64,000 nt of DNA from Chloroflexota bacterium. Lineage in GTDB: Bacteria; Chloroflexota; Anaerolineae; Aggregatilineales; UBA3940. This document shows, piece after piece, positions 3,159 to 62,696 of this stretch. Within the stretch, counting starts at the first letter, position 1, and each line of letters begins with the position of its first letter. The DNA lies in NCBI GenBank assembly GCA_036679085.1, contig JAZIGM010000057.1, positions 146,635 to 210,634 on the forward strand. The letters run 5' to 3'. Under the pieces are notes generated by a model. It ran no database searches. It was not told where the DNA came from and saw only the letters and a list, made by a program, of their open reading frames with translations. A program made the position numbers and the translations under genes.

Positions 3159-4490
3159 TCAGCCCGTGGAGCGGACGCGCGCTGTTGTTGTGCTGTCGCT
3201 CGCCTCCGCCAGTAACTTCATTAAGGTTTCCGCCAGCCGGGCCGCGTCGTGTCGCCACGGACGCTGCTCGTCCACCAGCGGAGCCGTTACTATTTTAGCA
3301 CCGCTTCCAACAACACCATGGTTATTTTCAGCCAAAGCTACGTAGCTAAAGTTCATATCTTCACCGGCGTCGAGGAAGCGATCGTTGGCCAGCACGAGGT
3401 CAAACAGGCCGGGGCCGACGTGCCGCTCGATGGCGCGGACGTGGTCCTCCACGCTGTAGCCGTCTGTCTCGCCCGCCTGGGTGGCGACGTTGCACACGTA
3501 CACGCGCAGCGCCCGGCTGTGGCGAACCGCCTCGCCGATGCCCTGCACCAGCAGGTTAGGCAGGATGCTGGTGTAAAGGCTCCCCGGCCCGATGACGACC
3601 AGGTCGGCGGAGAGGATAGCACGCACGGCGTCGGGGTATGCGGGGACGTTGTCGGGCTTCAGGAAGACCCGCTCGATCACGCCGTGCACCTCCGGGATGG
3701 CGGACTCGCCCTCGACGCGCCGCACGTTGTTGGTCTGCACCTCGCGCAGATCGGCCATGAGCGTCACGTCGGAGAGCGTGGAGGGCAGCACTCGCCCGCG
3801 CACGGCGAGCACGCGGCTGCTCTCGATCAGCGCCTGCTCGAAGCTGCCCGTCACCCCGCTCAGCGCGGTAATGAACAGGTTGCCGAAGCTGTGCCCCTCC
3901 AGGCCGCCCTCACCGAAACGGTACTGGAAAAGCTGCGTCATCAGGTTCTCGTCGCGGGCGAGCGCGGCGAGGTTGTTGCGGATATCGCCGGGGGGCAGCA
4001 CGCCGAGGTCGCGGCGCAGGCGTCCCGAACTGCCGCCGTCGTCGGCGACGGTCACGATGGCGGTGATGTTCGAGGTGTGCGCCGTGAGGCCGCGCAGCAG
4101 CGTCGGCAGGCCGGTTCCCCCGCCGATGGCGACGACCTTCGGCCCGCGCCCGCGCTGGCGATACTCCATCATGGCGTCCACAATGTCACGGCTGCCGATG
4201 TCCAGCGGCGTGAAGATCGCCTGGCCGATACGGGTCAGCGCCAGCCCGACCATCACCGCGCCAATCACGCCGGCAATCAGCGCGCGTATCCAGGGCGGCG
4301 AGCCGCCGAGCGTGAGGATGAATTCGACGGGCGGTATCGGGTAAGATCGGAAAAGTTGCAGCAGCATCAGGGCAAACCCCAGCGCGAGGATCGTCACGCC
4401 GAGGAAGAGCAAGAGCAGCCAGCGCTTGACACCGAGGCCCGGCGTCAGCCACTTGCGAAGGGTGTGAGTCGGCTGCGTGCGAGGTTTCAC
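3159..4490 (-). CDS. YvcK/CofD-like (UPF0052) gluconeogenesis-factor family protein with N-terminal membrane anchor
   Basis: 443 aa; VVAIGGGTGLPTLLRGL, AIVTVADDGGSSGRLRRDLGVLPPGDIRN; hydrophobic N-terminus. Confidence 0.8.
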   Translation of the reverse strand: MKPRTQPTHTLRKWLTPGLGVKRWLLLLFLGVTILALGFALMLLQLFRSYPIPPVEFILTLGGSPPWIRALIAGVIGAVMVGLALTRIGQAIFTPLDIGSRDIVDAMMEYRQRGRGPKVVAIGGGTGLPTLLRGLTAHTSNITAIVTVADDGGSSGRLRRDLGVLPPGDIRNNLAALARDENLMTQLFQYRFGEGGLEGHSFGNLFITALSGVTGSFEQALIESSRVLAVRGRVLPSTLSDVTLMADLREVQTNNVRRVEGESAIPEVHGVIERVFLKPDNVPAYPDAVRAILSADLVVIGPGSLYTSILPNLLVQGIGEAVRHSRALRVYVCNVATQAGETDGYSVEDHVRAIERHVGPGLFDLVLANDRFLDAGEDMNFSYVALAENNHGVVGSGAKIVTAPLVDEQRPWRHDAARLAETLMKLLAEASDSTTTARVRSTG

Positions 4491-7108: not shown

Positions 7109-7173
7109 GGTAGGGGCCGGTCGTGATGCTTTGCACCATAGGCCCTGGGCGGCTCTGAGAGCCGCCCCTACCC
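7109..7173. repeat. degenerate member of the GTAGGGGC.. nested hairpin family
   Basis: ggtaggggccggtcgtgatgc...gggcggctctgagagccgcccctaccc. Confidence 0.6.
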
Positions 7174-13527: not shown

Positions 13528-16500
13528 TTAGAACCCCTCCAACCGGCTCAGGTCCACGATGCCGGAGGCCAGCGCGACGATGTGCTGCAGCAGCGCCAGC
13601 CGGTTCTGCCGGATGGCCGGATCCTCGTGCATCACCAGCACGCCGCCCTCGTCCGCCGGGGCGAAGAAGGTAGAGATAGCGGGCACCATCGGCGCGAACA
13701 CCGTCAGGAACCCGTCCACGTCCGCATCCGGACCGATGTTCCTGGCCGCCGACTGGTACGCCTTGACGAGCGCCTTCTCCGCAGGCTCGGCAAACTGCTT
13801 CGGCGCGAGTTCGTACGTCTCCTCCAGGTTGCGCGTGATGCGGGCGCAGCGTGCGTATGCGTCGAGGATGGCGGGCCAGTCCTCGCGGCGCGTCCACTCA
13901 GCGAGCTGCCCCGCGTAGCGGTAGGCCTGGTAGGGGTTGTGCCCCTGCTCGGCGATAACCGCCTCGACGACATCATGAGGGAACTCCTCGCGCAGCACGC
14001 CCGCCAACCGCCCTGCGATGAACGTCAGGACGGTTTCGCGGTGCTCCGGCGTGATGAACGTCTCGCCAAGCTCGCGCATGTAGCCCTGCGCGGCCCACTC
14101 GACCGCCTGCCGCAGGTCGAGGTCGATCCCCCGCTCGATGAGGATCTGCACGACGCCGAGCGCCGCCCGCCGCAGCCCGTACGGGTCGGCAGAGCCGGTT
14201 GGCTGGAGGCCCACCGCGAACAGCCCGACGAGGCTGTCCAGCCGGTCGGCGAGCGCGACGACCACCCCGGCAGGCGACTCCGGCAGCGCGCCGCCCGCCG
14301 AGCGCGGCATGTAGTGCTCGGCGATGGCCTGCGCCACCTCCTCCGGCTCTCCCGAACTGGCGGCGTACTCCCGCCCGACAAGCCCCTGCAGTGATGTCAT
14401 CTCGACAACGAGCGAGGTGGCGAGGTCGGCCTTTGCCAGCCGCGCCGCGCGGATCACGTGCTCCAGATCGCGGTCGGACTCGATGCCCAGCCGCGCCGCC
14501 AGCCGCGCCGCCAGCCCTTCGAGGCGCACGGCCTTGTCGTAGTACGAGCCAAGATCCTCCTGGAAGATCAGCGATTGCAGTTCGGGCAGGTAATCGGCCA
14601 GAGGCCGCTTGCGATCCTCGTTGAAGAAGTAGCGTGCATCCGCGAACCGGGCGCGGATCACGTGCTCGTTGCCCGCCCGCACCACGTCAAGGTGCTCGGC
14701 GTCGCCGTTGCGCACCGCGATGAAGTACGGCAGCAGGCGGCCATCCCCATCCACAACGGCGAAGTAGCGCTGATGCTTCTTCATGACAGTCGTCAGCACG
14801 ACATCGGGCAGCTCAAGATACTCCTCGGAGAACGAGCCGATGAGCGCCGTCGGCTGCTCGACGAGGTTGGTGACCTCCTCCAGCAGTTCGGGGTCGTCCA
14901 GCACGTAGCCGCCCACGCTCGTCGCAAGCGCCTCGACCTGCTCGCGGATCGCCTCGCGCCGCGCCTCCCGGTCGACGATCACGCCCATGGCTTCAAGGCG
15001 ACTGAAGTAGTCATCCGGGCTGCTGATCTCCACCTCCGGCGAGCGGAGCGGGCGCGGACCGCGCGTCACCCGGCCCGAGGCCACACCCGCGTACTGGAAG
15101 GGCACGACCTCGCCGCCGAGCAGCGCCACGTACCAGCGGATCGGGCGCGAGAAGGCGACGCCGGTCGCGTTCCAGCGCATCGAGCGGTCGAAGTGCAGGC
15201 CCGCCACCAGCCGGGGCAGCAGCCCGGCAAGCACCTCGGCGGCGGGGCGGCCTTCCTCGCGCACAATCGCCACCACGTACTCGCCGCCGTTGATCTCACG
15301 ACGCTCCAGGTCCTCTACGGCGATGCCCAGCCCCCGCGCGAAGCCCTCCGCCGCGCGGGTCGGGTTGCCGTCGGCGTCGTACGCGGCCTTGACGGGCGGG
15401 CCGCGACGCACGATCTCCTCGGCACGCTGGCTCGGCGCCAGCCCATCGACCAGCACAACCAGCCGGCGCGGCGTGCCCGTCACGCGGATCGACTCATAGG
15501 CCAGCCGGGCCTCGTCCAGCAGCGCCGGGACGCTCTGCTCAAGCTGCGCGATAGCCGCGTCGAGGTCGGCGGCGGGCAACTCCTCCGTGCCGATCTCCAG
15601 CAGGAAGGGCGCAGGCTCCGTCGGGTACGCGCCCACTGCGGGCGGCGGCAGTTCCGGCTGCGGGACGCTGACCGTGCCCGTCTCCGGGTCTACCTGCCAG
15701 CCATCGGGCAGCCAGGGGTACTCCATGCGCGCGCGCTGTTCGACATACGCCCCCGCCACCTGCGAGGCGAGGCGCTGCATCCGCCGGAAGTACTCGGCAC
15801 GCTCCACCACGCCGATCGCGCCGCGCGTGTCGAGCACGTTGAACAGGTGCGAGCACTTGAGCAGGTAGTCATGCGCGGGGAGCACCAGTGGCGGATCCTG
15901 TGCCAGCGCGCGCTGCGCCTCGCGCTCGTAGGTGTTGTAGACCTCGCGCAGACGGTCTACGTCCGCCACCTCAAAGTAGTAGCGGCAGTGCTCGATCTCG
16001 GACTGAAGCAGCAGGTCGCCATACCGCCAGCCCTCGCCCCACCGGATGTCCCACACCGCATCGACGCCCTGCAGCGCCAGCACGATACGCTCCAGCCCGT
16101 AGGTGATCTCGACGGAGATGGGCATCAGCGTTTGGCCGCCGGCCTGCTGGAAGTACGTGAACTGCGTGATCTCCTGCCCGTCGAGCCAGACCTCCCAGCC
16201 GAGGCCCCACGCGCCGAGCGCGGGCGACTCCCAGTTGTCCTCGACAAAGCGGATGTCGTGCTCGCGCCGGTCGATGCCCAGTGCCTCCAGCGATTGCAGG
16301 TACAGCTCCTGCGGGTTGCCGGGGTCGGGCTTGAGGATGACCTGAAACTGGTAATGCTGCTGCATGCGGTTGGGGTTGTCGCCGTAGCGCCCATCATCCG
16401 GGCGGATGGACGGCTCAACATAGGCCACGCGCCACGGCTCCGGGCCGAGCACGCGCAACGCGGTGGCGGGGTTCAGCGTGCCCGCGCCGACCTGCACGTT

Positions 16501-16587
16501 GTAGGGCTGCCAGATCACGCAGCCCTGCGCAGACCAGAACTGCTGCAACCGCATGATGACTTCTTGCAGAGATAGAGGCTCGCTCAC
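13528..16587 (-). CDS. glyQS: glycine--tRNA ligase, fused alpha and beta subunits
   Basis: Alpha-subunit N-terminus ([29 protein letters not shown]) continues into beta-subunit sequence in one ORF. I prefer GTG at 16587, preceded by GGAGGTGA, over the track start 16653. Confidence 0.93.
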
Positions 16588-16717
16588 TATCAAATCACCT
16601 CCGACGGGCGATGGATCAGATTTCGTTGTCCGGGGGCAGACGCCTCCCGGCACGCAGCCGGGCGCGCCCGTATCGTCGCCTTCGAGTTTAACGCGGAAAT
16701 TCTAACATGGCAGGGAA

Positions 16718-17140
16718 GCCGGGCAATAAATTGCCCGGCTATAAGGCGGCTGCGCCGCCGCGAAGTCCCCTATCGGGGACTTGTTTATGTTCGGAGCATC
16801 GCCTCAGAGGGCAAGAGTCCCGCAGGGACCTGGCGGGATAGCAAAGCCATCCCTTTTAGCCGGGGAATCAATTCCCCGGCTACCCTCACCCCGGGTGAGC
16901 CACCTGCGGCGCCTCGCCCTGCCCCTCTCCCGGGCGGCCACTATCGTGGCCTGGGAGAGGGGGCCAGGGGTGAGGGTTGTAACCCGCCACGGATGCAGGG
17001 ATAACGTATGTAGGGGCGGGTCTGAGACCCGCCCCTACCAAAGACGGTCCATAGCGTGAGGATAGCCGAGCATAAATCGTCCGGCGACGTGATAGCCTCG
17101 CTATCCGGGCGGCTGCGCCGCTCGCTTAATCGCCCTGCTA
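16718..17140. repeat. array of GC-rich hairpin modules (left flank of the transposase homolog; reverse orientation of the composite unit)
   Basis: gccgggcaataaattgcccggc, ggcggctgcgccgcc, gtcccctatcggggac, gggatagcaaagccatccc, ccggggaatcaattccccgg, cccctctcccgggc..tgggagagggg, gtaggggcgggtctgagacccgcccctac. Confidence 0.85.
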
Positions 17141-17159: not shown

Positions 17160-17678
17160 ATGCTAATTCCGGACAAGCCTTTAATTGCCGGGCGGGTAAT
17201 GATTACCGGGCAACCACAAAGGCGATACACCTTGGCATACTGGCGCCAATTCTTCCACATTGTGTGGGCGACGTATCGACGGCAGCCTCTTCTATCACCG
17301 GAAATCGAACCTCGCGTGCATCGAGTAATAACCGCGCTCTGCAGCGAACAGGGTGGTCAGGCATACGCTGTGAATGGAATGCCGGACCACATACATATGG
17401 TGACTACCATCCCGCCGACACTTTCCACTGCAACCTTTGTCAAGAAGCTAAAAGGGGCTTCGTCCCACTTTATCACCCACGAACTCGGTTGTCCTTTCCG
17501 CTGGGAGGCAGGGTACGGAGTCCTGACGATCAGCCAGCGGAACTTGCGACAGGCTATCGACTATGTGAATGGCCAGAAGCAGCATCATGAAGCAGGGCAA
17601 GTCTTCAAGGCTTATGAACTCTCGAGCACCAAGAATGATGGCCCGAAATCATTGAGGCTGAAACCAGCCAGCAGGTAG
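17160..17678 (+). CDS. IS200/IS605-family Y1 (HUH) transposase homolog, RAYT-like
   Basis: 172 aa; FFHIVWATYRRQPLL, HUH motif PDHIHMV, tyrosine helix AIDYVNGQKQHH; no tnpB partner. Alternative start ATG 17199, because the first ~55 nt contain hairpin-like sequence. Confidence 0.85.
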   Translation: MLIPDKPLIAGRVMITGQPQRRYTLAYWRQFFHIVWATYRRQPLLSPEIEPRVHRVITALCSEQGGQAYAVNGMPDHIHMVTTIPPTLSTATFVKKLKGASSHFITHELGCPFRWEAGYGVLTISQRNLRQAIDYVNGQKQHHEAGQVFKAYELSSTKNDGPKSLRLKPASR

Positions 17679-17689
17679 CCTTGTCAGGT

Positions 17690-17954
17690 GGAGTCCGCTT
17701 GCGGACTTCGCGGCGGCAAAGCCGCCTTGTAGCCCGGCAATTGATTGCCGGGCGGGATCTGGCAACCAAGCCACCAAGCCACCGCCCAGGAATAGAATTC
17801 CCGGGCTACAAGGGATAGCTTCGCTATCCCGCAAAGTGCCCTGACGGGCACTCCCAGCCCAAAGGGCCGGCGTCTCCCTGCGGGAGACGGAGTCCGCCTG
17901 CGGCGGACTTCGCGGCGGCGCAGCCGCCTTTTAGCCCGGCAATTGATTGCCGGC
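17690..17954. repeat. array of GC-rich hairpin modules (right flank of the transposase homolog; forward orientation)
   Basis: ggagtccgcttgcggacttc, gcggcggcaaagccgcc, gcccggcaattgattgccgggc, gggatagcttcgctatccc, gtgccctgacgggcac, gtctccctgcgggagac, ggagtccgcctgcggcggactt, gcggcggcgcagccgcc. Confidence 0.85.
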
Positions 17955-17986: not shown

Positions 17987-18015
17987 TTGACGCCTTACAC
18001 CACCCTTGCTATAAT
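17987..18015 (+). promoter_or_regulatory. sigma70-type promoter for tRNA-Asn: TTGACG-17-TATAAT
   Basis: TTGACG 17987-17992, 17-nt spacer, TATAAT 18010-18015; the tRNA starts 13 nt downstream. Confidence 0.6.
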
Positions 18016-29392: not shown

Positions 29393-29449
29393 CATCTCCG
29401 CACCACGTCTGACCGAATGTGTCGTAGGGGTGGGTCTGAGACCCACCCC

Positions 29450-32400
29450 TTATTCCTCATCTGTATACGTCCAGTCGGAGCGATCGGGCGGTGGAGCGCC
29501 CCGGCGGCGACGCCACACAAACACCCCCAGCCCGACCGCCAGCAGCGCACCCGCGCCCAGCAGGAACGGCACCATCGGGTTCTGGCGCACGCGCTCCACG
29601 AGGGCGGGCGGCGCGGGCGGGAAGCTGTCCGGATAGTCGGCGGCGACGGTCGTGAAGCGCCATACCGGCCCCTGGATCGTATCGCCCTGGCGGTCCGTTA
29701 CCTCCACCCGCCAGCGATAGGTGCGCATCGGGTCGAGGTCGGCAACGCGCAACGTCGGCTCGCCCTGCACCACGCCCAGGAATGGCGGGTCGCTGGTGAC
29801 GCCAAAATACACCTTGTACGTCAGCGTATCGCACTCGTGAGGCGGCGGCCCCCAGCTCAGGTTCAGCTCAAGCGGCGCGCCGTCGCGCCCATCGAACGGC
29901 TCCGGGAACTGCGGGATAGGCGGCAGCACGGGCGGCGCGTTGGGGTCGTAGCGCAGCGTCAGGAGCTGGTTGGCCTCGGCGAGGTACACATGCCCGCCGC
30001 CGCTCAACACCACATCGCTGGCGTAGCTGCTGCGCCAGTAGCCCCGCTCCTGCGGGGATGCCGGGTTGGAGACATCCACCACGCGCAGCCCGCAGATGCC
30101 GTCCGCCACGTAGAGATCATTGCCGTCGAGCGCCGCCTGCAATGCATCGCCCGGCGTATCGACAAAGCCGATAACCTCCGGCTGCACGGCGTCGGCCAGG
30201 CTGAGCAGCACGACGCCCCCCTCGCCCAGCGCCGCTGCTGCCCGCGCCCCGTCAGGCGCAAGCGTCAGGCCCAGCACCGGCGAGTCGCCTACCGGAAGCG
30301 TGTTCACAAGGCGCGGCGTCGGCTCGATCTGGCTCACGTCGAGCGCCTCGATGCCGCCCTCCCAGCTAACGAGCAGCGTCCCCTCGTCGAGCGGCAGCAG
30401 GTCGTTCACAAACTGCCCCGCCGCCGATGTGTAGCTGTACAGCCGGACCGGGTTGGCCGGGTCGGTCAGGTCCACAACGAGCAGCCCGCCCTGATGCATC
30501 GCCAGAAAAGCCCGGTCGCCCATCTGCACGCCCCGGTCCACCTCGCCGGCGGCGCTGAGCTGGCCGACCTGGGTGAAGCGCCCGTTCTCCCAGTTGACAA
30601 GCACAAAGCCGTTCGCCAGGCTGACGAGCAGGCCCGCCGGGGCGGGGTCCACGTGGCGGCCCGGTGCAGCGAGGGGCATCTCCGCCAGCAGCGTCGGCCT
30701 GACCCGGTCGGACACATCCCACGCCGTCAGCGACTCCCCGGCGGCAAAGAGGATGTTCCCGTCCAGGTAGACGGACCGAACCGGCTGCTCGTAGAAGACG
30801 ATCTCCGCCTCGGGCACGGTCACGTCGAGTAGAGCCAGCCCGTCCTCGCCAAGCGCGAGGTAGGTGATGTTCTGGCGCATGGCGAACTCCAGCGCCCGCG
30901 TCGTGATGCTCTGCCGGTGCACAGGCTGCTCATCGGGAAGCGGCGACGCGTCATAGACGTGCAGCGCCGAGCCGGGCTGGAGCGTCCACAGCCAGCCGTC
31001 GCCAAACGCCCCGCGCGAGGTGTAGGCACGCAGGTTACTGAAGCCAAAGGACATCAGGTCGTCAACCGGGTCGACGCGCAGCCGCATCAGCCGGTCGTCT
31101 TCGAGGGCATAGATGGTCTCGCCGTCCGGCCCGTAGAACAGGTCGGTGGGGCGGCGCGTCTGGAGGATGCTGTGCACGCGCAGCCCGCCGGTCGGGTCGG
31201 CAAGGTCCACCACCGCGAGCTGCCCATCCTCCAGCGGGAAATACGCCAGATGGTCCTTGCGAACAATGTCGGTTGGCGGGGCGGGCAGCGCCACCCGTGT
31301 TACCGGCTGGAGATAGCGGTTATCGTAGATGGACAGCCCGTCGGCGTCAGCAACGTAGACGAAGCGCTCGTCAAGCGCGATGCCGGTCGCGCTGCCCCGC
31401 GCCTCGCGCTGTGTGATCAGCACGGGCTGCCCCGTCTGCCCGCCGCCCAGATTGTAGAGCGCCACCCCCGACTCGCCCGCCGCCACGCCGATCATCTCGC
31501 CGTTCGTGGCTACCCCGCGCACGGGCAGAGGGTCGGGAGCGAGGGCCAGCACCTCTGGCAGGCGCTCGCCGTTAAGGCCAAGCAGCGCCCAGCCGCCGCG
31601 CCCCCCGGCGAGCAGCCAGTCCGCGCCCGCCGTGATCTGCCCGACCTCGCCGCTGATGCTGTACTGCCCCTGCACTTCCAGCAAGCCGCTCGCCGACAGC
31701 CGGTAGCGGCTTAAGCCCTCGTAGCCGCGCGCCAGCCACACGCCATCAGCATCCGGCCAGGGCCGATGCGCCGCGCCGAGCGCGGGCAGGCTGTCAAGCT
31801 CGGCAGGGCGGTCGGGCAGGGACAGGTCGAGCGCGACGAGCACCGGGCCATCCCCCGCCCCGGCGAGATAGGCGCGGGTTCCGTCCGTGGCAATGCGGCT
31901 GACGCGCCCCAGCCCGTAATAGGCCCGCATAAACACCGGCTCGGATGTGGCGCGGGCGTCGAACACCGTGATCCGGTCACCGTGCAGGACGTAGAGGTAC
32001 ACGCCGCGTGAGGCGACGTGCGTCGCAGGTACCGGCACGAGCGTCAGGCGCCCCATTGAGTCGGCAAAGGAGACATCGACAACCGCCATGCGGTCGCCCT
32101 CGCCGAGATACGCCCGCTTGCCGGTGATCATTACGCTGTCCACCGACCGCCCATCCGACGGAGCCAGCACCCCCGCCAGCGACATCACGCCGGGGAAGCT
32201 GATGTCCACGGCAATCAGCCCGGTTTCACCCCCGGCGACGAACAGCGCATTGCCGCGCCGGGCGATGTCGAGCGCCGGGCCGGGCAGCGCAAACGGCTCG
32301 CGGACCGTGCCCCCGCCCAGCGGGTTGAGGTCGATGGCAACCAGCCCCGCTTCCCCGGCGGCGACGTATAACACCCGCTCGTTGAACGCCGCCCGCTCCA

Positions 32401-43721: not shown

Positions 43722-43946
43722 GCCCGGCAATGAATTGCCGGGCTATGTGTAATTGTCCGCTCCGCGGACAGAGGCGCCGGGCAATAAATTGCCCGACTAA
43801 AAAGGGATTGCACCGCAATCCCGCGAAGTGCCCTATCGGGCACTCCCGGCCCGAAGGGCCGGCGCCCCCACAGGGGGCGGAGTCCTCCTGCGGAGGACTT
43901 GGCGGTGGCGCAGCCACCTTGTAGCCCGGGAATTCCATTCCCGGGC
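43722..43946. repeat. multi-hairpin composite repeat (forward orientation)
   Basis: Same module order as 54794-54969: A gcccggcaatgaattgccgggc ... B gggattgcaccgcaatccc, C gtgccctatcgggcac, D, E gcccccacagggggc, F ggagtcctcctgcggaggactt, G ggcggtggcgcagccacc, A gcccgggaattccattcccgggc. Confidence 0.85.
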
Positions 43947-51743: not shown

Positions 51744-54473
51744 TCAGGCCTGCTCCATCTCTGCGCGGAGCATGTCGCGCAGCACCGCGTGCAGGATGCC
51801 GCCGTTGCGGTAGTACTTCACCTCGACGGGTGAGTCGATACGGGCGATGGTGGTAAATACCTTCTCCTCATTCGTGCCGGGCACGCGAGCGCGCACCGTG
51901 ATCTCCTGCCGGGGCCGGATGTCGCGGCTGATGCCCTCCACGTCGTAGACCTCATAGCCGGTCAGCCCCAGTGTCTGGGCGTTCTCGCCCGGCTTGAACT
52001 GGAGCGGCAGCACGCCCATGCCGACCAGGTTGCTGCGGTGGATGCGCTCGTAGCTCTCGGCGATGACGGCCTTCACACCCAGCAGGAGCACGCCCTTGGC
52101 CGCCCAGTCACGCGAGCTGCCTGTGCCGTACTCCTTGCCGGCGATGACCAGGAGCGGCGTGCCCTCGTTCTTGTAGAGCATGGCCGCCTCGTAGATGCTC
52201 ATCTCCTGCCCGTCCTCCCGGCGGGCCGCGCCCTGCGGCAGGTAGACGGTCACACCGCCCTCGGTGCCGGGCACAAGCTGGTTGCGCAGGCGGATGTTGG
52301 CAAACGTCCCGCGCATCATGACCTCATGGTTGCCGCGCCGCGAACCGTACGAGTTGAAGTCGCGCCGCTCGACGCCGTGCTCAACGAGGTACTGCCCCGC
52401 CGGGCTGGTCAGCGGGATCGACCCGGCAGGCGAGATGTGGTCAGTCGTGACGGAGTCGCCAAGCAGCGCCAGCACCCGCGCGCCCCGGATGTCGCCGATC
52501 TCCGGTTCCTCCGGCGTGAGGTCCTTGAAGAACGGCGGCTCCTGAATGTACGTCGAGTTCGGGTCCCAGGTGTACAGTTCGCCCTTCGGCACGGCGATCT
52601 GGTTCCACATCTCGTTGCCGGTAAAGACGTTCGCGTACTCCTCCTCGAACATCTCCGGCTTGAGCGCGTTGTGGATGGTCTCGCGGATCTCCTCCTGAGA
52701 CGGCCAGATGTCGCGCAGGTACACGGGCTGGCCCGACGGCGTCGTACCGATTGGCTCGGTCTCAAAGTCGATGTCCACCGTGCCCGCCAGCGCATAGGCG
52801 ATGACGAGCGGCGGCGAGGCCAGGTAGTTGATCTTCGTCAGCGGGTGGATGCGCCCCTCAAAGTTGCGGTTGCCGCTCAGGACCGCGGCCACAACCAGGT
52901 CCTGCTCCTGCACCGCCTGGGCGACATCCTCCTGGAGCGGGCCGCTGTTGCCGATGCAGGTCGTGCAGCCGTAGCCAACAACGTGATAGCGCAGCGCCTC
53001 CAGGTAGGGCATCAGCCCGGCTTCGGTGAGGTAGCGGGTCACGACCTTCGAGCCGGGGGCGAGGCTGGTCTTGACGTGCGGCGGCACGCTCAGCCCCAGT
53101 TCGACGGCCTTTTTCGCCAGAAGCCCCGCGCCGACCATCACCGCCGGGTTGGAGGTGTTGGTGCAGCTTGTGATGGCCGCAATGACAACCGTACCGTCCG
53201 TCACAGCGCTCTTGCTGCCATTGGTGGCGGCTGCCTGCTCCCCGCGATGGCCGTTCTCCTTCAGTTCGCTCAGCACCTTGCGGAAGGCCTGCTGGCTGCG
53301 GGCCAGCGGGATGCGATCCTGCGGGCGCCGGGGGCCGGCGATGCTCGGCTCCACATCGCCGAGGTCCAACTCCAGCGTGGCGGAGTAGACCGGGTCGGGC
53401 GAGTCGTCGGTGCGGAACATCCCCTGCGCCTTGGTGTACCGCTCGACGAGGTCAACAAGCGCCTCGCTGCGACCCGTGCTGCGCAGGTAGTTGAGTGTCT
53501 CATCGTCGACCGGGAACAGGCCGATGGTCGCGCCGTACTCCGGCGACATGTTGGCAATCGTCGCGCGGTCGGCGAGGCTGAGCGTGCTGACGCCCGGCCC
53601 GAAGTACTCCACAAACTTGCCGACCACGCCGCGCTCGCGTAGCATCTGCGTGACGGTCAGCACGAGGTCGGTGGCGGTTGCGCCCTCGCGCAGCTCGCCC
53701 GTCATGCGGAAGCCGATCACCTCCGGCATGAGCATGTAGATCGGCTGCCCGAGCATGACCGCCTCGGCTTCGATGCCGCCCACACCCCAGCCGACGACGC
53801 CCAGCCCGTTGATCATCGTGGTATGCGAGTCGGTGCCGACCAGCGTGTCGGGGAAGGCGATGGTTTCGCCGTTGACCGTGCTCGTCTGCACGACCTTTGC
53901 GATGTACTCCAGGTTGACCTGGTGCACGATGCCGGTGGCGGGGGGCACAACCCGGAAGTTAGCGAAGGCGTCCTGCCCCCAGCGCAGGAACTCGTACCGC
54001 TCGCGGTTGCGCTCGAACTCGCGCTCGGCGTTGTACATCAGCGCAAAGGCCGAGCCAAACTGGTCCACCTGCACCGAGTGATCGATCACGAGGTCAACGG
54101 GCACGACCGGGTTAATGCGGGTAGGGTCGCCGCCCAGCCGCGCCATCGCCGAGCGCAGCGCGGCAAGGTCGACCACGCTGGGCACACCGGTGAAGTCCTG
54201 CAGGATCACACGGGCGGGCTTGTACGGGATCTCCTGCTCGCCGGGGCGGGCCCAGGTGGCAAGGTTCACGACGTCGTCGCGGGTGATCTCGAAATTGTCA
54301 AGCTGCCGGAGCGCGGCCTCCAGCATAATTTTCATCGAGTAAGGCAGGCGAGATACGTTGCCGATCCCCTCTTCCTCCAGCCGGGTGATGCGGTAGATGG
54401 TTACCGGCCCGTTGGGGGTTTCCAGCGTCTCGCGTGCGCCGAAGGGGTCTATGGGCTGGTCTTGGTTGCTCAT
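51744..54473 (-). CDS. acnA: aconitate hydratase AcnA
   Basis: 909 aa; full-length aconitase A pattern ([34 protein letters not shown]). Confidence 0.96.
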
Positions 54474-54793
54474 CTCTCCTCGCTATCCGTTCTGTGAGCA
54501 CTCATTCGCTCGAACAACTGTTTTAGGGTTAAACTATCAGATGCAGCTACACCGATGGCGTGACAATCTGCAGTGAGTTTTGAGGTTAAGGGGCCACAAT
54601 GATGGTCAGCGTGCCCGGGCTGCCCAAGGTTCTCTTAAAGTATAGCGAATTGGTCCAGATTCTTGTAGTTGAGAGGTGGTGGGGCTGGGGAACCCCTCCG
54701 AACGGCCCAAAGGGTCGTCCACCTCTTCTAAAAGGGGGCGTGGAGAACGGCGTTGTCCTTTGTCGTGTCACCTGATCGCCCCCTAACAGCCCC

Positions 54794-55138
54794 GCCGGGG
54801 AATGGAATTCCCCGGCTAAAAGGGATAGCGGAGCTATCCCGCGAAGTGCCCTGACGGGCACTCCCGTCCCCTCCGGGGACGGCGCCCCCATAGGGGGTGG
54901 GAGTCCGTCGCAGACGGACTTGGCGGCGGCGCCAGCCGCCTGCCCGGCAATTTATTGCCGGGCGTCCTCGCCGGGGAATGAAGTTCCCCGGCTAAAAGGG
55001 ATAGCGGAGCTATCCCGCGAAGTGCCCTGACGGGCACTCCCGTCCCCTCCGGGGACGGCGCCCCCAAGGGGGCGGGAGTCCGTCGCAGACGGACTTGGCG
55101 GCGGCGCCAGCCGCCTGCCCGGCAATTCATTGCCGGGC
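54794..55138. repeat. tandem duplication (about 97% identity) of a 176-bp unit made of eight different hairpins
   Basis: Unit 1 is 54794-54969; unit 2 is 54970-55138. They differ by only 4 substitutions and 1 indel by my alignment. Confidence 0.9.
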
Positions 55139-55179: not shown

Positions 55180-57483
55180 GTGGACTGGCAGCTTCCCTCA
55201 ACAGACATCCGCATCGATGACGCGCTGCGCGAGGCGGTGGGCGGGCATCCGCTCGTCGCGGAGATCCTCGCGCGGCGCGGCCTGACGGACCCGGCCCGCG
55301 CGCTCGCCTTCCTCGACCCGGCCCGCTACCGGCCCGCCTCACCCGACGACCTGCCCGACCTCTGCGCGGCGGCGGAGCGCCTTCTGCACGCCGTGCGCAA
55401 CCGCGAGCAGGTGCTCGTCTGGGGCGACTTCGATGTGGACGGCCAGACGGCGACCGCGCTGCTCGTCGATGCGCTGCGCCGCCTCGGCGCGAACGTGCGC
55501 TACCATATCCCCCGCCGGCTGGAGCACGGGCACGGCGTACAGATCGACGTGCTGCGCGAGCACCTCTCACGCGGGGTGGATGTGCTGCTGACCTGCGACA
55601 CGGGTATCGCTGCGCATGAAGCGGTCGGTGCCGCCCGCGCTGCCGGCGTGGATGTGCTCGTCACCGACCACCACGCGCTGCCTCCCACCCTGCCCGACGC
55701 TCATGCCGTTGTTAACCCGCAGCGCCTGCCTGAGGGGCACCCGTTGCGCGACCTGCCCGGCGTTGGCGTGGCCTACAAGCTGGTCGAGAAGCTGTACGAC
55801 CTCGCAGGCCGCGCCGGGGAGGAGCAGGACCTGCTCGACCTTGTCGCGCTCGGCATCGTCGCGGATGTTGCCACGCTGCGCGGCGATACCCGCTATCTGC
55901 TCCAGCTTGGGCTTGACCGCCTGCGCGACCCCCGGCGAGTCGGCCTGCAGGCGCTGTTCGCGTCCGCGCAGGTCGTGCCGACCCACCTTTCCGCCGACAC
56001 GATCGGCTTCCAAGTCGGGCCGCGCCTCAACGCGCTGGGGCGGCTTGACGACGCCGCGCTGGCCGTCAAACTGCTCACCACCAGCGACCGCGAGACCGCC
56101 CAGCAGATCTCCGCACAGCTTGAAAGGCTCAACGACCTCCGCAAGCAGCTTCAGGACCAGATTGTCGGGGCGGCGCTGGCACAGGTCGAGAAGGACCCGG
56201 CCCTGCTCGACTTCGAGGCGCTGGTACTCGCCGGTGAGAACTGGCACGCGGGCGTGCTCGGCATCGTCGCCGCGCGGCTGGTCGAACTGTACAACCGCCC
56301 GGCGGTCGTGCTGACGTGCCCCCCCGGCGAACCGGCGCGCGGCTCGGCCCGCTCCGTGCCCGGCGTGGACATCGGCGCGGCGATTGCCGCCTGCGCGGAC
56401 CTGCTCGTGAGCCACGGCGGGCACCCCGGCGCGGCAGGCCTCGCCCTCGACCCGGACCTCATTCCGCAGTTCCGGCGGCGGCTGTCGAACGCCATTGCCA
56501 AAACGCGCGACCCATCCGTTCGCCCCGTGCAGCAGGTGGATGCCGTCGTCAGCCTGGCGGATGTGACGGACGCCTTCGCGGCGGAGTTGAACCGGCTTGC
56601 GCCCTTCGGGGAGGGCAACCCGCCGGTGCAGGTGATGGTCCCCCGGCTGGTGGTCAGGACGAGCACGACGTTCGGGTTGGAGCGGCAGCACCGGCGCGTC
56701 ACCGTCGTGGATGAGACGGGCCGCACGGCGGTCGTGACGTGGTGGCGCGGTGCGGACTCGCCGCTGCCGCAGACCCTGTTCGACCTGCTGTTCATCCCCC
56801 GCTTCAGCGATTACAAAGGCAGCCGCACGCTGGAACTGGAGTGGGTAGCGAGCCGCCCGACCCCCGGCGTTGTGATTGAGCCTGGCACGCGCCGTGAGGT
56901 GATCGATCTGCGCCGTGAACCATCCCCGCGCGGCCAGCTCCCGGCGGATGGGTTCGCAGTGTGGGCGGAGGCCGCGCCGCAGGACGCGCTGCCGTTCCCC
57001 ACCGAGCAGCTCGTGGACCGCCACAGCATACAGCCTGTCTCCGACCTCGTGATCTGGTCCACGCCGCCCGGCCCGCTTGAGCTTCAGGAGATGATCGAGG
57101 CCAGCCGCGCGCGGCGGTTCTATCTCGTCGGGGAGCACCGCCCGCCGAGCGATCCGGACGGCTTCGCCCGGCGGCTGGCAGGGCTGGCGAAGTACGCCAT
57201 CGAGCACTACCCGGACGGTGTCGGGCTGCGGCAGATCGCGGCGGCGATGGGCCAGCGTGAGATCACGGTGCGGCGCGGGCTGGAGTGGCTGGCCGCGAAG
57301 GGCATGTTCGGCGTGGAGTGGCTGCCCGACGACCAGGTGCGTATCACGCCCGGCGGCAACCCTGACCCCGAGGCGGCGGCGCGGCTGTGGGATTCCGTCA
57401 CGGCGCTGCTGCGCGAGGCGGCGGCCTTCCAGCAGTACTTCCTGCGCGCGGACCTGTCGGCGTTTTTCGAGGGTGAGGGGTGA
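55180..57483 (+). CDS. recJ: single-stranded-DNA-specific exonuclease RecJ
   Basis: 767 aa; VLVWGDFDVDGQTATALL, LLTCDTGIAAHE, VLVTDHH (DHH motifs), GGHPGAAG. Confidence 0.92.
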   Translation: MDWQLPSTDIRIDDALREAVGGHPLVAEILARRGLTDPARALAFLDPARYRPASPDDLPDLCAAAERLLHAVRNREQVLVWGDFDVDGQTATALLVDALRRLGANVRYHIPRRLEHGHGVQIDVLREHLSRGVDVLLTCDTGIAAHEAVGAARAAGVDVLVTDHHALPPTLPDAHAVVNPQRLPEGHPLRDLPGVGVAYKLVEKLYDLAGRAGEEQDLLDLVALGIVADVATLRGDTRYLLQLGLDRLRDPRRVGLQALFASAQVVPTHLSADTIGFQVGPRLNALGRLDDAALAVKLLTTSDRETAQQISAQLERLNDLRKQLQDQIVGAALAQVEKDPALLDFEALVLAGENWHAGVLGIVAARLVELYNRPAVVLTCPPGEPARGSARSVPGVDIGAAIAACADLLVSHGGHPGAAGLALDPDLIPQFRRRLSNAIAKTRDPSVRPVQQVDAVVSLADVTDAFAAELNRLAPFGEGNPPVQVMVPRLVVRTSTTFGLERQHRRVTVVDETGRTAVVTWWRGADSPLPQTLFDLLFIPRFSDYKGSRTLELEWVASRPTPGVVIEPGTRREVIDLRREPSPRGQLPADGFAVWAEAAPQDALPFPTEQLVDRHSIQPVSDLVIWSTPPGPLELQEMIEASRARRFYLVGEHRPPSDPDGFARRLAGLAKYAIEHYPDGVGLRQIAAAMGQREITVRRGLEWLAAKGMFGVEWLPDDQVRITPGGNPDPEAAARLWDSVTALLREAAAFQQYFLRADLSAFFEGEG

Positions 57484-62608: not shown

Positions 62609-62696
62609 GCCGCGACTAAACGTCGCGGCTCCTGATCATGAATAGCACAAACGACACAATGCAAATGGTAGGGGCGGATCTCAGATCCGCCCCTAC
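62609..62696. repeat. two hairpin modules: GCCGCGACTAAACGTCGCGGC and short GTAGGGGCGGATC-tcA-GATCCGCCCCTAC
   Basis: The first recurs at 21320-21340. The second is the insert-free form of the nested element (also at 17010-17038 and 29424-29450). Confidence 0.8.

Follow-up and report, generated by a model that had tools for sequence, protein, structure and literature searches.

How does a string of different hairpins come to be repeated, in one and the same order, at unrelated places in a bacterial genome? The question is raised by positions 54794-55138 of a 64,000-nt stretch of DNA (contig JAZIGM010000057.1 of assembly GCA_036679085.1, hereafter the window) from an uncultured member of the Aggregatilineales, phylum Chloroflexota. 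This locus consists of two tandem copies of a non-coding repeat of ~170 nt, hereafter the train, which is dispersed in this genome. The original prediction, made from the sequence of the locus, described a unit of eight distinct hairpins and proposed that the whole train is either copied as one unit or folded as a single RNA or single-stranded DNA. As detailed below, the train is probably a non-autonomous element that resembles the doublets of repetitive extragenic palindromes (REPs) known as REPINs and the bacterial interspersed mosaic elements (BIMEs), and that would be mobilised on single-stranded DNA by a resident Y1 transposase acting at two inverted hairpins, designated A.

Two hairpin trains in the acnA-recJ spacer

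The locus is made of two head-to-tail trains, each composed of the same eight hairpins, in the divergent spacer between acnA and recJ:

54794..54963, plus strand: train unit 1 (sequence, DNA and RNA folds, perfect-stem scan, nhmmer, covariance model)
54794-54816: hairpin A1 of unit 1
54817-54822: tag CTAAAA
54822-54840: hairpin B
54845-54862: hairpin C
54864-54882: hairpin D
54883-54899: hairpin E
54901-54921: hairpin F
54925-54940: hairpin G
54942-54963: hairpin A2
54964..54969, plus strand: joint GTCCTC, 6 nt, between the units (sequence, alignment)
54970..55138, plus strand: train unit 2, same eight hairpins (alignment, nhmmer, stem scan, covariance model)
51744..54473, minus strand: acnA, left neighbour, pointing away from the array (strong Pfam and NCBIfam matches)
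55180..57483, plus strand: recJ, right neighbour, co-oriented with the trains (strong Pfam and NCBIfam matches)

In pairwise alignment, the two units are 4 substitutions and 1 single-base indel apart, and their identity ends at the outer feet of A1 and A2. Three of the five differences fall in loops, and the other two alter only G.T wobbles in the A1 and E stems. As direct repeats, the units are seen at 54790-54896/54966-55072 and 54886-54963/55061-55138, with spacings of 176 and 175 nt and 95% identity each over extended windows. The array was missing from the output of Tandem Repeats Finder, probably because it holds just under two copies. The end of unit 2 is 41 nt from the GTG start of recJ, which has a GGAG ribosome-binding site 8 nt 5' of this codon.

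Unit 1 was recovered by nhmmer (E = 2e-48) and by the covariance model (170 bits). Folded as single-stranded DNA, its minimum-energy structure is a row of eight separate perfect or near-perfect hairpins, with an energy of -70.8 kcal/mol compared with -41.8 +/- 3.1 for 200 shuffles, none of which was as stable (z = -9.2). Both strands fold equally well as RNA (z = -7.9 for the plus strand and -8.4 for the minus strand), as palindromes would be expected to do. These data confirm the two near-identical tandem units that had been described, and the count of eight hairpins stands, but the hairpins are not all distinct: A1 and A2 are one and the same REP-type palindrome in inverted orientation. The view that the array is not simply a terminator was also borne out, this candidate being excluded by the divergent spacer and by the deletion of the T-run after hairpin G. 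Other candidates were rejected on their own grounds: there are no spacers or repeat regularity as in a CRISPR, no cassettes as in an integron attC array, and no reverse transcriptase nearby as for a retron.

Just upstream of unit 1, a nested hairpin (54668-54745) of the form GAGGTGG...CCACCTC encloses two small hairpins. The sequence that comes next, CTAAAAGGGGGCGTGGAG, has 78% similarity to the A1-B junction CTAAAAGGGATAGCGGAG, and the region may be a decayed older train.

Dispersal of the train as a single unit

Module searches, a profile hidden Markov model (HMM) and the covariance model located five full trains and one half train at four sites in the window. Besides units 1 and 2, these are listed here together with a solo A hairpin, their positions being given relative to a Y1 transposase gene described below:

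16718..16880, minus strand: diverged full train in opposite orientation, left of the Y1 gene
17690..17753, plus strand: half train F-G-GTAG-A2, directly after the Y1 stop codon
17784..17955, plus strand: full train downstream of the Y1 gene, 74 nt upstream of a tRNA-Asn gene
43722-43743: solo A hairpin near the following train
43776..43946, plus strand: full train flanked by lgt and a DUF6391 gene; identity to unit 1, 81%; GTAG foot before A2

The train at 16718-16880 lies ~65 nt upstream of the start of a 1041-aa open reading frame (ORF; 13528-16653, minus strand), which we take to be glyS from its translation and not from a family search. At least five further train sites were found in metagenome contigs and metagenome-assembled genomes (MAGs) by a pattern scan of metagenome contigs and look-ups of related contigs. 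With loci outside the window designated by numbers, these sites are L007, L008/L011, L009, L012, and L010, which is the same site as L013/L014 and lies downstream of pyrD.

In every copy found, at a minimum of nine unrelated genomic sites, the module order A-B-C-D-E-F-G-A and the orientation of the modules are constant. Departures from this order are limited to internal deletions (L009, L007, and L015, which is without B) and to one swap, in L012, where a B-like hairpin stands in place of G; L008/L011 show other tandem arrangements. Flanking sequences are unrelated between sites, and the similarity between copies stops at the feet of A1 and A2. A random order of modules across the genome would have spoken against the train as a unit of copying; the fixed order at so many unrelated sites bears out that part of the original prediction. 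Dispersed copies are 66-89% identical to one another, compared with at least 96% between units 1 and 2. The copies lie in intergenic DNA, often right after a stop codon (L010/L013, L011, and the trains at 43776 and 17690), and the unrelated genes beside them may have a train upstream, downstream or in antisense. Adjacent gene and train point the same way at seven of the nine sites and opposite ways at two, a bias too weak to interpret, as is the weakly negative GC skew over 1-56 kb of the window. No target-site duplication or conserved flank was detected, apart from C being favoured ahead of A1 and G behind A2.

The family is lineage-specific. In 1.24 Mb from 80 related genomes (loci collected on the basis of RecJ, mostly from Anaerolineae), neither trains nor series of at least four perfect hairpins side by side were present, and BLAST searches of plasmid and phage collections returned no train match. 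A C-hairpin pattern scan of the genome collection's contigs was also empty, because the nearest species representative is only 61-65% identical in RecJ. AcnA and RecJ are identical to proteins of MAGs described as Aggregatilineales bacterium (Chloroflexota), whose source was biogas and anaerobic-digester metagenomes. The pattern scan of metagenome contigs is unsuitable for counting copies: it yielded no more than 6 loci and overlooked contigs from the Joint Genome Institute (JGI) that do bear the pattern (L004, L104-L107).

The A hairpins and their foot

The outer hairpins A1 and A2 are a single 22-23-nt palindrome of REP type, GCCSGGSAAT-loop-ATTSCCSGGC, arranged tail-to-tail in the nomenclature of PMC3733652: A1 has this hairpin followed by CTANAA, and A2 has the same hairpin preceded by TTNTAG. 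A total of 10 A hairpins occur in the window and 37 in the loci examined, all of them intergenic, so that within these loci the A hairpin behaves as a REP, i.e., a palindrome of 20-40 nt with many intergenic copies. A TA stands directly at exactly one foot in 35 of the 37, and one hairpin bears it at both. This TA faces inward throughout the full trains examined, as CTA(N)AA after A1 and TT(N)TAG before A2. A TA foot is missing solely from the A2 hairpins of units 1 and 2, as a result of a 4-nt deletion. Read with the first G of the stem, the foot is TTAG in most copies, GTAG in about a quarter, and CTAG or ATAG in others. Canonical REPs carry GT[AG]G at the foot of the hairpin (PMC6006769, PMC3733652). 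A conserved foot thus exists in the A hairpins, one base out of register with the canonical tetranucleotide and, in the majority of copies, different from it.

The interval of ~125 nt between A1 and A2 is occupied by six other short GC-rich hairpins, B to G. Two inverted A hairpins with an inward-facing foot that enclose a fixed cassette therefore argue for a non-autonomous element of REPIN or BIME type. As in a REPIN, two inverted REPs delimit the unit that is repeated, with similarity ending at their outer feet. The pairing of these REPs into one long hairpin is not seen, however: both minimum-energy and consensus folds give eight local hairpins.

A Y1 transposase gene among the trains

A candidate enzyme is encoded within the window itself, in the midst of the trains:

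17229..17678, plus strand: HUH/Y1 transposase gene of 149 codons with a TTG start (MAYWRQFFHIVWAT...), identified with Pfam and NCBIfam, the start being set from homologues

The protein matches Pfam Y1_Tnp (1.3e-22) and the NCBIfam IS200 model (74 bits for a cut-off of 55), its HUH motif reads DHIH, and its catalytic tyrosine lies in YVNGQKQHH. The closest solved structures in the PDB are the TnpA of ISDra2, followed by that of IS608. No tnpB is present with the gene. By the motifs of Table 1 in PMC6006769, and not by an HMM, the protein falls in TnpA-Y1 subclass 1.2 (DH[IV]H, Y---Q--HH, ~148 aa, low copy number).

The existence of this gene embedded in the trains was not part of the original prediction. 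In the window, the inverted and diverged train lies to its left, and the half train plus a full train to its right. Directly upstream of it stand four trains in L013 and one in L014, both of them NCBI MAGs, with the same downstream trains. In L015, from a related species with another gene neighbourhood and a Y1 protein 76% identical, the gene lies between a plus and a minus train. A low-copy Y1 gene flanked by its dispersed REPs, the arrangement known as a REPtron, is thus found in the window, L013, L014 and L015. The class-2 Y1 protein of the REP-associated tyrosine transposases (RAYTs) is what this locus does not have.

Several observations were made in the vicinity of the gene. On its left (~17180-17228 compared with L013/L014 3940-4000), the DNA differs between assemblies. 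The window has the ORF at 13528-16653 and the inverted train; L013 and L014 have pyrimidine-synthesis genes with OTCace, OMPdecase and DHO_dh domains, presumably pyrB, pyrF and pyrD, and direct trains. The point of divergence falls within an A-type hairpin, which suggests a rearrangement or a misjoin at the repeat. On the right, a near-consensus sigma-70 promoter (17987-18015; TTGACG-17 nt-TATAAT) lies between the end of the train (17955) and the tRNA-Asn gene (18029).

The genome also has a second, unrelated palindromic repeat, a "double-foot" GTAG hairpin GTAGGGGCGGGTCTGAGACCCGCCCCTAC with solo copies at 17010-17038 and 62668-62696. Searches with blastn-short found matches of this type near window positions 29424-29450 and 7147-7172, and in L007 (4455-4484), L010 (20-50), L015 (4995-5027) and L097 (5822-5849). 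One such hairpin precedes the Y1 gene by 190 nt, and another like it follows the Y1 relative of L097 at ~320 nt. Adjoining the inverted train, a long nested palindrome at 16884-16978, ACCCTCACCCC...GGGGTGAGGGT with an inner CCCCTCTCCC...GGGAGAGGGG, may represent a third repeat family together with a similar CCCTCACCCC...GGAGTGAGGG motif located right of the train in L008 and L011.

Hairpin units beside related Y1 genes

Relatives of the Y1 protein were examined in L015 and in seven more distant lineages (39-55% identity). Each relative is listed on very few contigs, with several on 9-74. Hairpins of the form ...AAT-NN-ATT... or ...GAT-NN-ATC... flank the Y1 gene in six of the seven distant lineages, or seven of eight with L015. 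They belong to repeated units in five of the distant lineages, four of these units being multi-hairpin. A three-hairpin unit of 110 nt stands on either side of the gene in L115, and L113 has a three-hairpin unit that occurs twice. Units of 125 nt, about seven in number and distributed over both flanks, accompany the gene of Cyanobacterium sp. HL-69 (L100), and in L016 a multi-hairpin unit of 86 nt is found as two plus two copies. L110 shows a single hairpin type, in two copies. Related hairpins without a repeated unit are present in L097, and no such hairpins were found beside the gene in L102.

The leading hairpins have a loop-proximal core in common, which reads GCAAT-TG-ATTGC here and TGAAT-GA-ATTCA, GTAAT-TC-ATTAC or TGAT-GA-ATCA elsewhere, and the TA at the foot of the leading hairpin recurs in L016 and L100. 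This flanking pattern is as would be expected if the A-type hairpin were the cognate binding site of this Y1 clade, for which it provides circumstantial evidence. More tentatively, Y1 subclass 1.2, catalogued as an orphan group, might have repeats of its own, built on a hairpin whose core next to the loop reads (A/G)AT-NN-AT(T/C). This hairpin would have a TA foot in certain lineages and would typically form part of a multi-hairpin cassette; the lineage studied here would be one in which the whole eight-hairpin cassette, bounded by two inverted A copies, is dispersed. If true, this would define a new type of REPtron/REPIN across Chloroflexota and Cyanobacteria, with a fixed set of sequence-conserved hairpins as mobilised cargo.

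Conservation of stems and drift of loops

Covariance support for the fold was sought in an alignment of 15 distinct copies fitted to the structural model, which was used for pair counts because MAFFT misaligned some stems (E, G). In this alignment, which by its construction leans towards the structure, 97.6% of the cells are paired, and 17 of the 65 pairs have changes on both sides, compared with 5.9 +/- 1.5 in shuffles (0 of 500 reaching 17) and 0-5 in slid controls. Each of the eight helices has at least one pair changed on both sides, and RNAalifold predicted the same eight hairpins from the same alignment.

Among nine copies from different sites, the pairwise difference is 13.6% for stems and 24.8% for linkers, as compared with 55.2% for loops and 66.2% for the sequence immediately outside the element. 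Loops are near saturation, and most copies are therefore old. Stems, and in part linkers, are conserved in sequence as well as in pairing. That the loops have become almost random beside such conserved stems speaks for selection acting on the internal hairpins, rather than for hairpins that are only carried along. Stem mismatches of the G.T and A.C kinds are equally frequent (9 and 7 columns), without strand asymmetry, so that neither strand is singled out as a folded RNA.

A model for mobilisation and its rivals

The reading that we favour, and consider probable, is that of a REPIN/BIME-like element moved on single-stranded DNA by the resident Y1 protein. The hairpins would extrude when DNA is single-stranded, for instance at the replication fork; the enzyme encoded at 17229-17678 would bind the A hairpins and cut beside the TAG foot; and the segment between two A hairpins would be excised or copied in one piece, and rejoined beside another hairpin foot. 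Movement of the A-bounded segment in one piece would explain the fixed order of the modules. Tandem arrays would result from re-insertion next to a resident copy or from unequal recombination, and recombination between units would collapse them again. Binding and cutting by Y1, the single-stranded substrate and the route of tandem-copy formation are all inferred. What the sequences show is the dispersal of the unit, its sharp ends at the A hairpins, the conserved foot, the compensatory changes in all eight stems, the Y1 gene embedded in trains, the analogous units beside Y1 relatives, and the copy-number polymorphism described below.

A number of points weigh against this model. No empty orthologous site, target duplication or recent dispersed near-identical copy was found in the loci compared, and transposition is thus undocumented. 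The Y1 protein is not a class-2 RAYT: it scores 26 bits with NCBIfam REP_Tyr_transpos, for a cut-off of 80, its tyrosine motif is Y---Q--HH instead of Y---NP, and the solved TnpA-REP of E. coli is absent from its PDB matches. Subclass 1.2 has been described without REPs (PMC6006769). The gene is apparently single-copy, on the strength of two contigs of the protein collection bearing a 99%-identical protein and not of a closed genome. Its GC content at third codon positions (GC3), 0.61, is well below the 0.85-0.90 of host genes. A GC3 below that of the neighbours is also seen in L015, L016, L097, L100, L102, L110 and L115, with L113 as an exception, and these lineages include the species whose Y1 is 76% identical and the cyanobacterium (0.22 for the gene against 0.40 for its neighbours); low GC3 looks like a stable property of the family rather than a sign of recent transfer. 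Finally, the conservation of stem sequences, beyond pairing, could equally reflect a host-level function or a stem-binding host protein, and the co-orientation with adjacent genes is compatible with a role at the transcript level.

These last points lead to the main rival explanation, in which trains are REP-like elements that serve the host, either as 3' stabilisers or weak terminators of transcripts, or as DNA platforms for nucleoid or topology proteins, any link to the transposase being historical; it is for the usefulness of their stems that they would persist. We regard this as unlikely, and as compatible with the model above. It is kept alive by stems that are 86% conserved while loops are near saturation, and by the 7:2 co-orientation. 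The intergenic position, often right after a stop codon, and terminator-like motifs (TTTTAG after G on the plus strand and after B on the minus strand) also suit it, and E. coli REPs are reported to be active in 3' untranslated regions (10.64898/2026.03.23.713779). A terminator or 3' stabiliser would make no sense, however, at 54794-55138 and 16718-16880, where the train immediately precedes the start of a gene and the spacer is divergent. Units 1 and 2 have lost the T-run that follows G, G.T and A.C mismatches are balanced, and internal deletions (L009, L007, and L015 without B) as well as copy numbers of 1, 2 or 4 are tolerated.

Less likely still is that trains are miniature derivatives (miniature inverted-repeat or palindrome-associated transposable elements, MITEs or PATEs) of an autonomous IS200-like element with multi-hairpin ends, of which the Y1 gene with its flanks would be the only full-length copy left, and not a domesticated REP-associated gene. 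In sequence, the protein is indeed nearest to the TnpA of IS200/IS605 elements, as the IS200 score and the ISDra2 and IS608 structures indicate. The flanking units are direct, not inverted, in L013, L014, L016, L100 and L115, and IS200 ends lie on one strand. The low GC3 of the gene would fit as well, lower GC3 being usual for mobile genes. Yet no second copy of the gene has been seen, the two contigs noted above being the only ones in the whole collection, and there is no tnpB. The full train is bounded by inverted A hairpins, and Y1 itself has inverted flanks in the window and in L015, so that the units beside the gene are direct in some lineages and inverted in others. The neighbourhood of Y1 also changes between species while the trains persist.

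The RNA alternative of the original prediction found no support, and a structured non-coding RNA, whether a multi-copy small RNA or an element of the recJ 5' untranslated region, is very unlikely. The stability of the fold (z = -7.9), the compensatory changes in all helices, and the co-orientation with recJ, 41 nt before its start, would be expected of such an RNA. Perfect palindromes nevertheless fold equally on both strands, and there is no excess of G.U wobbles on the sense strand, nor a promoter-like site in the acnA-recJ spacer. Rfam 15 gave no match at or above the gathering score in the region, and two tRNAs were its only matches across the window; searched up to E 10, the region returned noise, the best sub-threshold match having 26.5 bits for a gathering score of 160. 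Gene orientation is not strict, with copies upstream, downstream and antisense of unrelated genes, and the association with Y1 and tandem amplification are typical of DNA repeats.

Tandem duplication and copy-number polymorphism

An acnA-recJ spacer of 706 bp, identical without a single difference, is found in L104-L107, and the two-unit allele is present in six assemblies, namely the window and five independent JGI assemblies (L004, L104-L107). A single unit is found in five others (L001, L002, L003, L005, L006), which are of three kinds: all unit 1; the start of unit 1 with E and A2 of unit 2; and the start and E of unit 1 with A2 of unit 2. Each kind can be derived from the two-unit allele by one recombination, each at a different point. 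The junction of the all-unit-1 kind (L001) recurs at the end of an independent contig, L108, from which it appears that both alleles exist. An assembly artefact, which the original prediction had named as a possible source of the duplication, is scarcely credible even with these single-unit assemblies and with contigs that break inside the array (L108, L109), as the two-unit spacer recurs in five independent assemblies, the units differ at five positions that make them distinguishable in reads, and the one-unit junction recurs independently. With six two-unit assemblies and three recombinant one-unit alleles, copy number is polymorphic in nature, which the original prediction had not foreseen, and assembler collapse may have contributed in part.

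The near-identity of the units had been read as the mark of a recent duplication, and the comparison with the more divergent dispersed copies agrees: the duplication is local and recent, or the units are kept uniform by conversion. The joint GTCCTC resembles neither the left flank (AGCCCC) nor the right flank (AGCAGG). Its mismatch with the left flank is more easily reconciled with a second copy having inserted beside the first than with simple duplication of a segment that included the flank.

Other arrays were noted at related loci. L013 has four identical tandem trains directly upstream of Y1 (3212-3960), with a period of 193 nt made of the 170-nt train and a 23-nt linker, GGGATCTGGCAACCAAGCCACC; L014 has a single train at the same place (3790-3960). 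L013 also has a run of N inside the downstream train. L108 (1-127) and L109 (1-51) end inside a train array just upstream of recJ, which indicates that the repeat breaks short-read assemblies. With copy number varying between assemblies and a putative rearrangement breakpoint coinciding with a train, trains matter for MAG quality and strain typing.

Comparison with known systems

REP/REPIN systems are the main class of persistent, vertically inherited bacterial repeats. Outside Proteobacteria and a few Cyanobacteria they are, to our knowledge, hardly recorded, and the Y1 enzyme has in all cases been of class 2. The trains would extend the phenomenon to an uncultured lineage of Chloroflexota abundant in anaerobic digesters, would point to a candidate DNA substrate for a Y1 subclass hitherto without one, and would show a mobilised unit far more elaborate than two REPs, with its six internal hairpins. 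Our literature search found no description of a composite train unit or of a REP association for Y1 subclass 1.2.

Composite intergenic repeats whose distinct modules have a preferred order, vary in number and are predicted to be highly structured include the pneumococcal BOX element (boxA-boxB-boxC), the Neisseria intergenic mosaic elements (NIMEs) and the Rhizobium intergenic mosaic elements (RIMEs). The trains resemble these families in their modular build and have no sequence relationship with them (no Rfam match, no BLAST match in plasmids or phages). We know of no established Y1 partner for any of the three.

Within the same phylum, Thermomicrobium roseum has large clusters of GTAG-23 REPs with a GTAG foot (Di Nocera et al. 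2013, PMC3733652). They are associated with small palindromes, CCGSSCC(n3-4)GGSSCGG, and hairpin D of some train copies has exactly this form (CCGGCCCGAAGGGCCGG). In T. roseum, the clusters are large blocks at few loci, with REPs inserted into the small palindromes (PMC3733652); a fixed eight-hairpin unit dispersed in its entirety is not among the features described there.

The closest parallels are the REP/BIME and RAYT systems (TnpA-REP, REPtron) of E. coli and Pseudomonas (PMC2817692, PMC3333891, PMC8266576). They share with the trains a build of short palindromes, GC-rich and with a conserved tetranucleotide at the foot, that are scattered between genes and cluster in inverted orientation; in both, a low-copy HUH/Y1 gene is flanked by the repeats. 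The two differ in the foot, which is NTAG here, with the G inside the stem and mostly as TTAG, and GT[AG]G there; in the unit, with eight hairpins of seven kinds in a fixed order instead of the alternating copies of one or two REP types of a BIME; and in the enzyme, which is IS200-like (Y---Q--HH) whereas RAYTs are class 2 (Y---NP). In REPINs (Bertels & Rainey 2011, PMC3116915; PMC3337134), too, what replicates is a pair of inverted REPs with its spacer, and a transposase present in single copy is presumed to act in trans. A REPIN, however, is one long hairpin formed by pairing between its two REPs over a short unstructured spacer, whereas in the train each REP is self-complementary and the spacer of ~125 nt is made of six independent conserved hairpins.

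As for the enzyme, TnpA-Y1 subclass 1.2 (Quentin et al. 2018, PMC6006769) agrees with the protein described here in DH[IV]H, W[QE], Y---Q--HH, a length of ~148 aa and low copy number. It was reported from Cyanobacteria and Bacteroidetes, with the entry "REP: no" and without the terminal structures of IS200 type (PMC6006769). In contrast to that report, characteristic hairpins, mostly repeated, stand beside the gene in eight of the nine lineages considered here, this species included.

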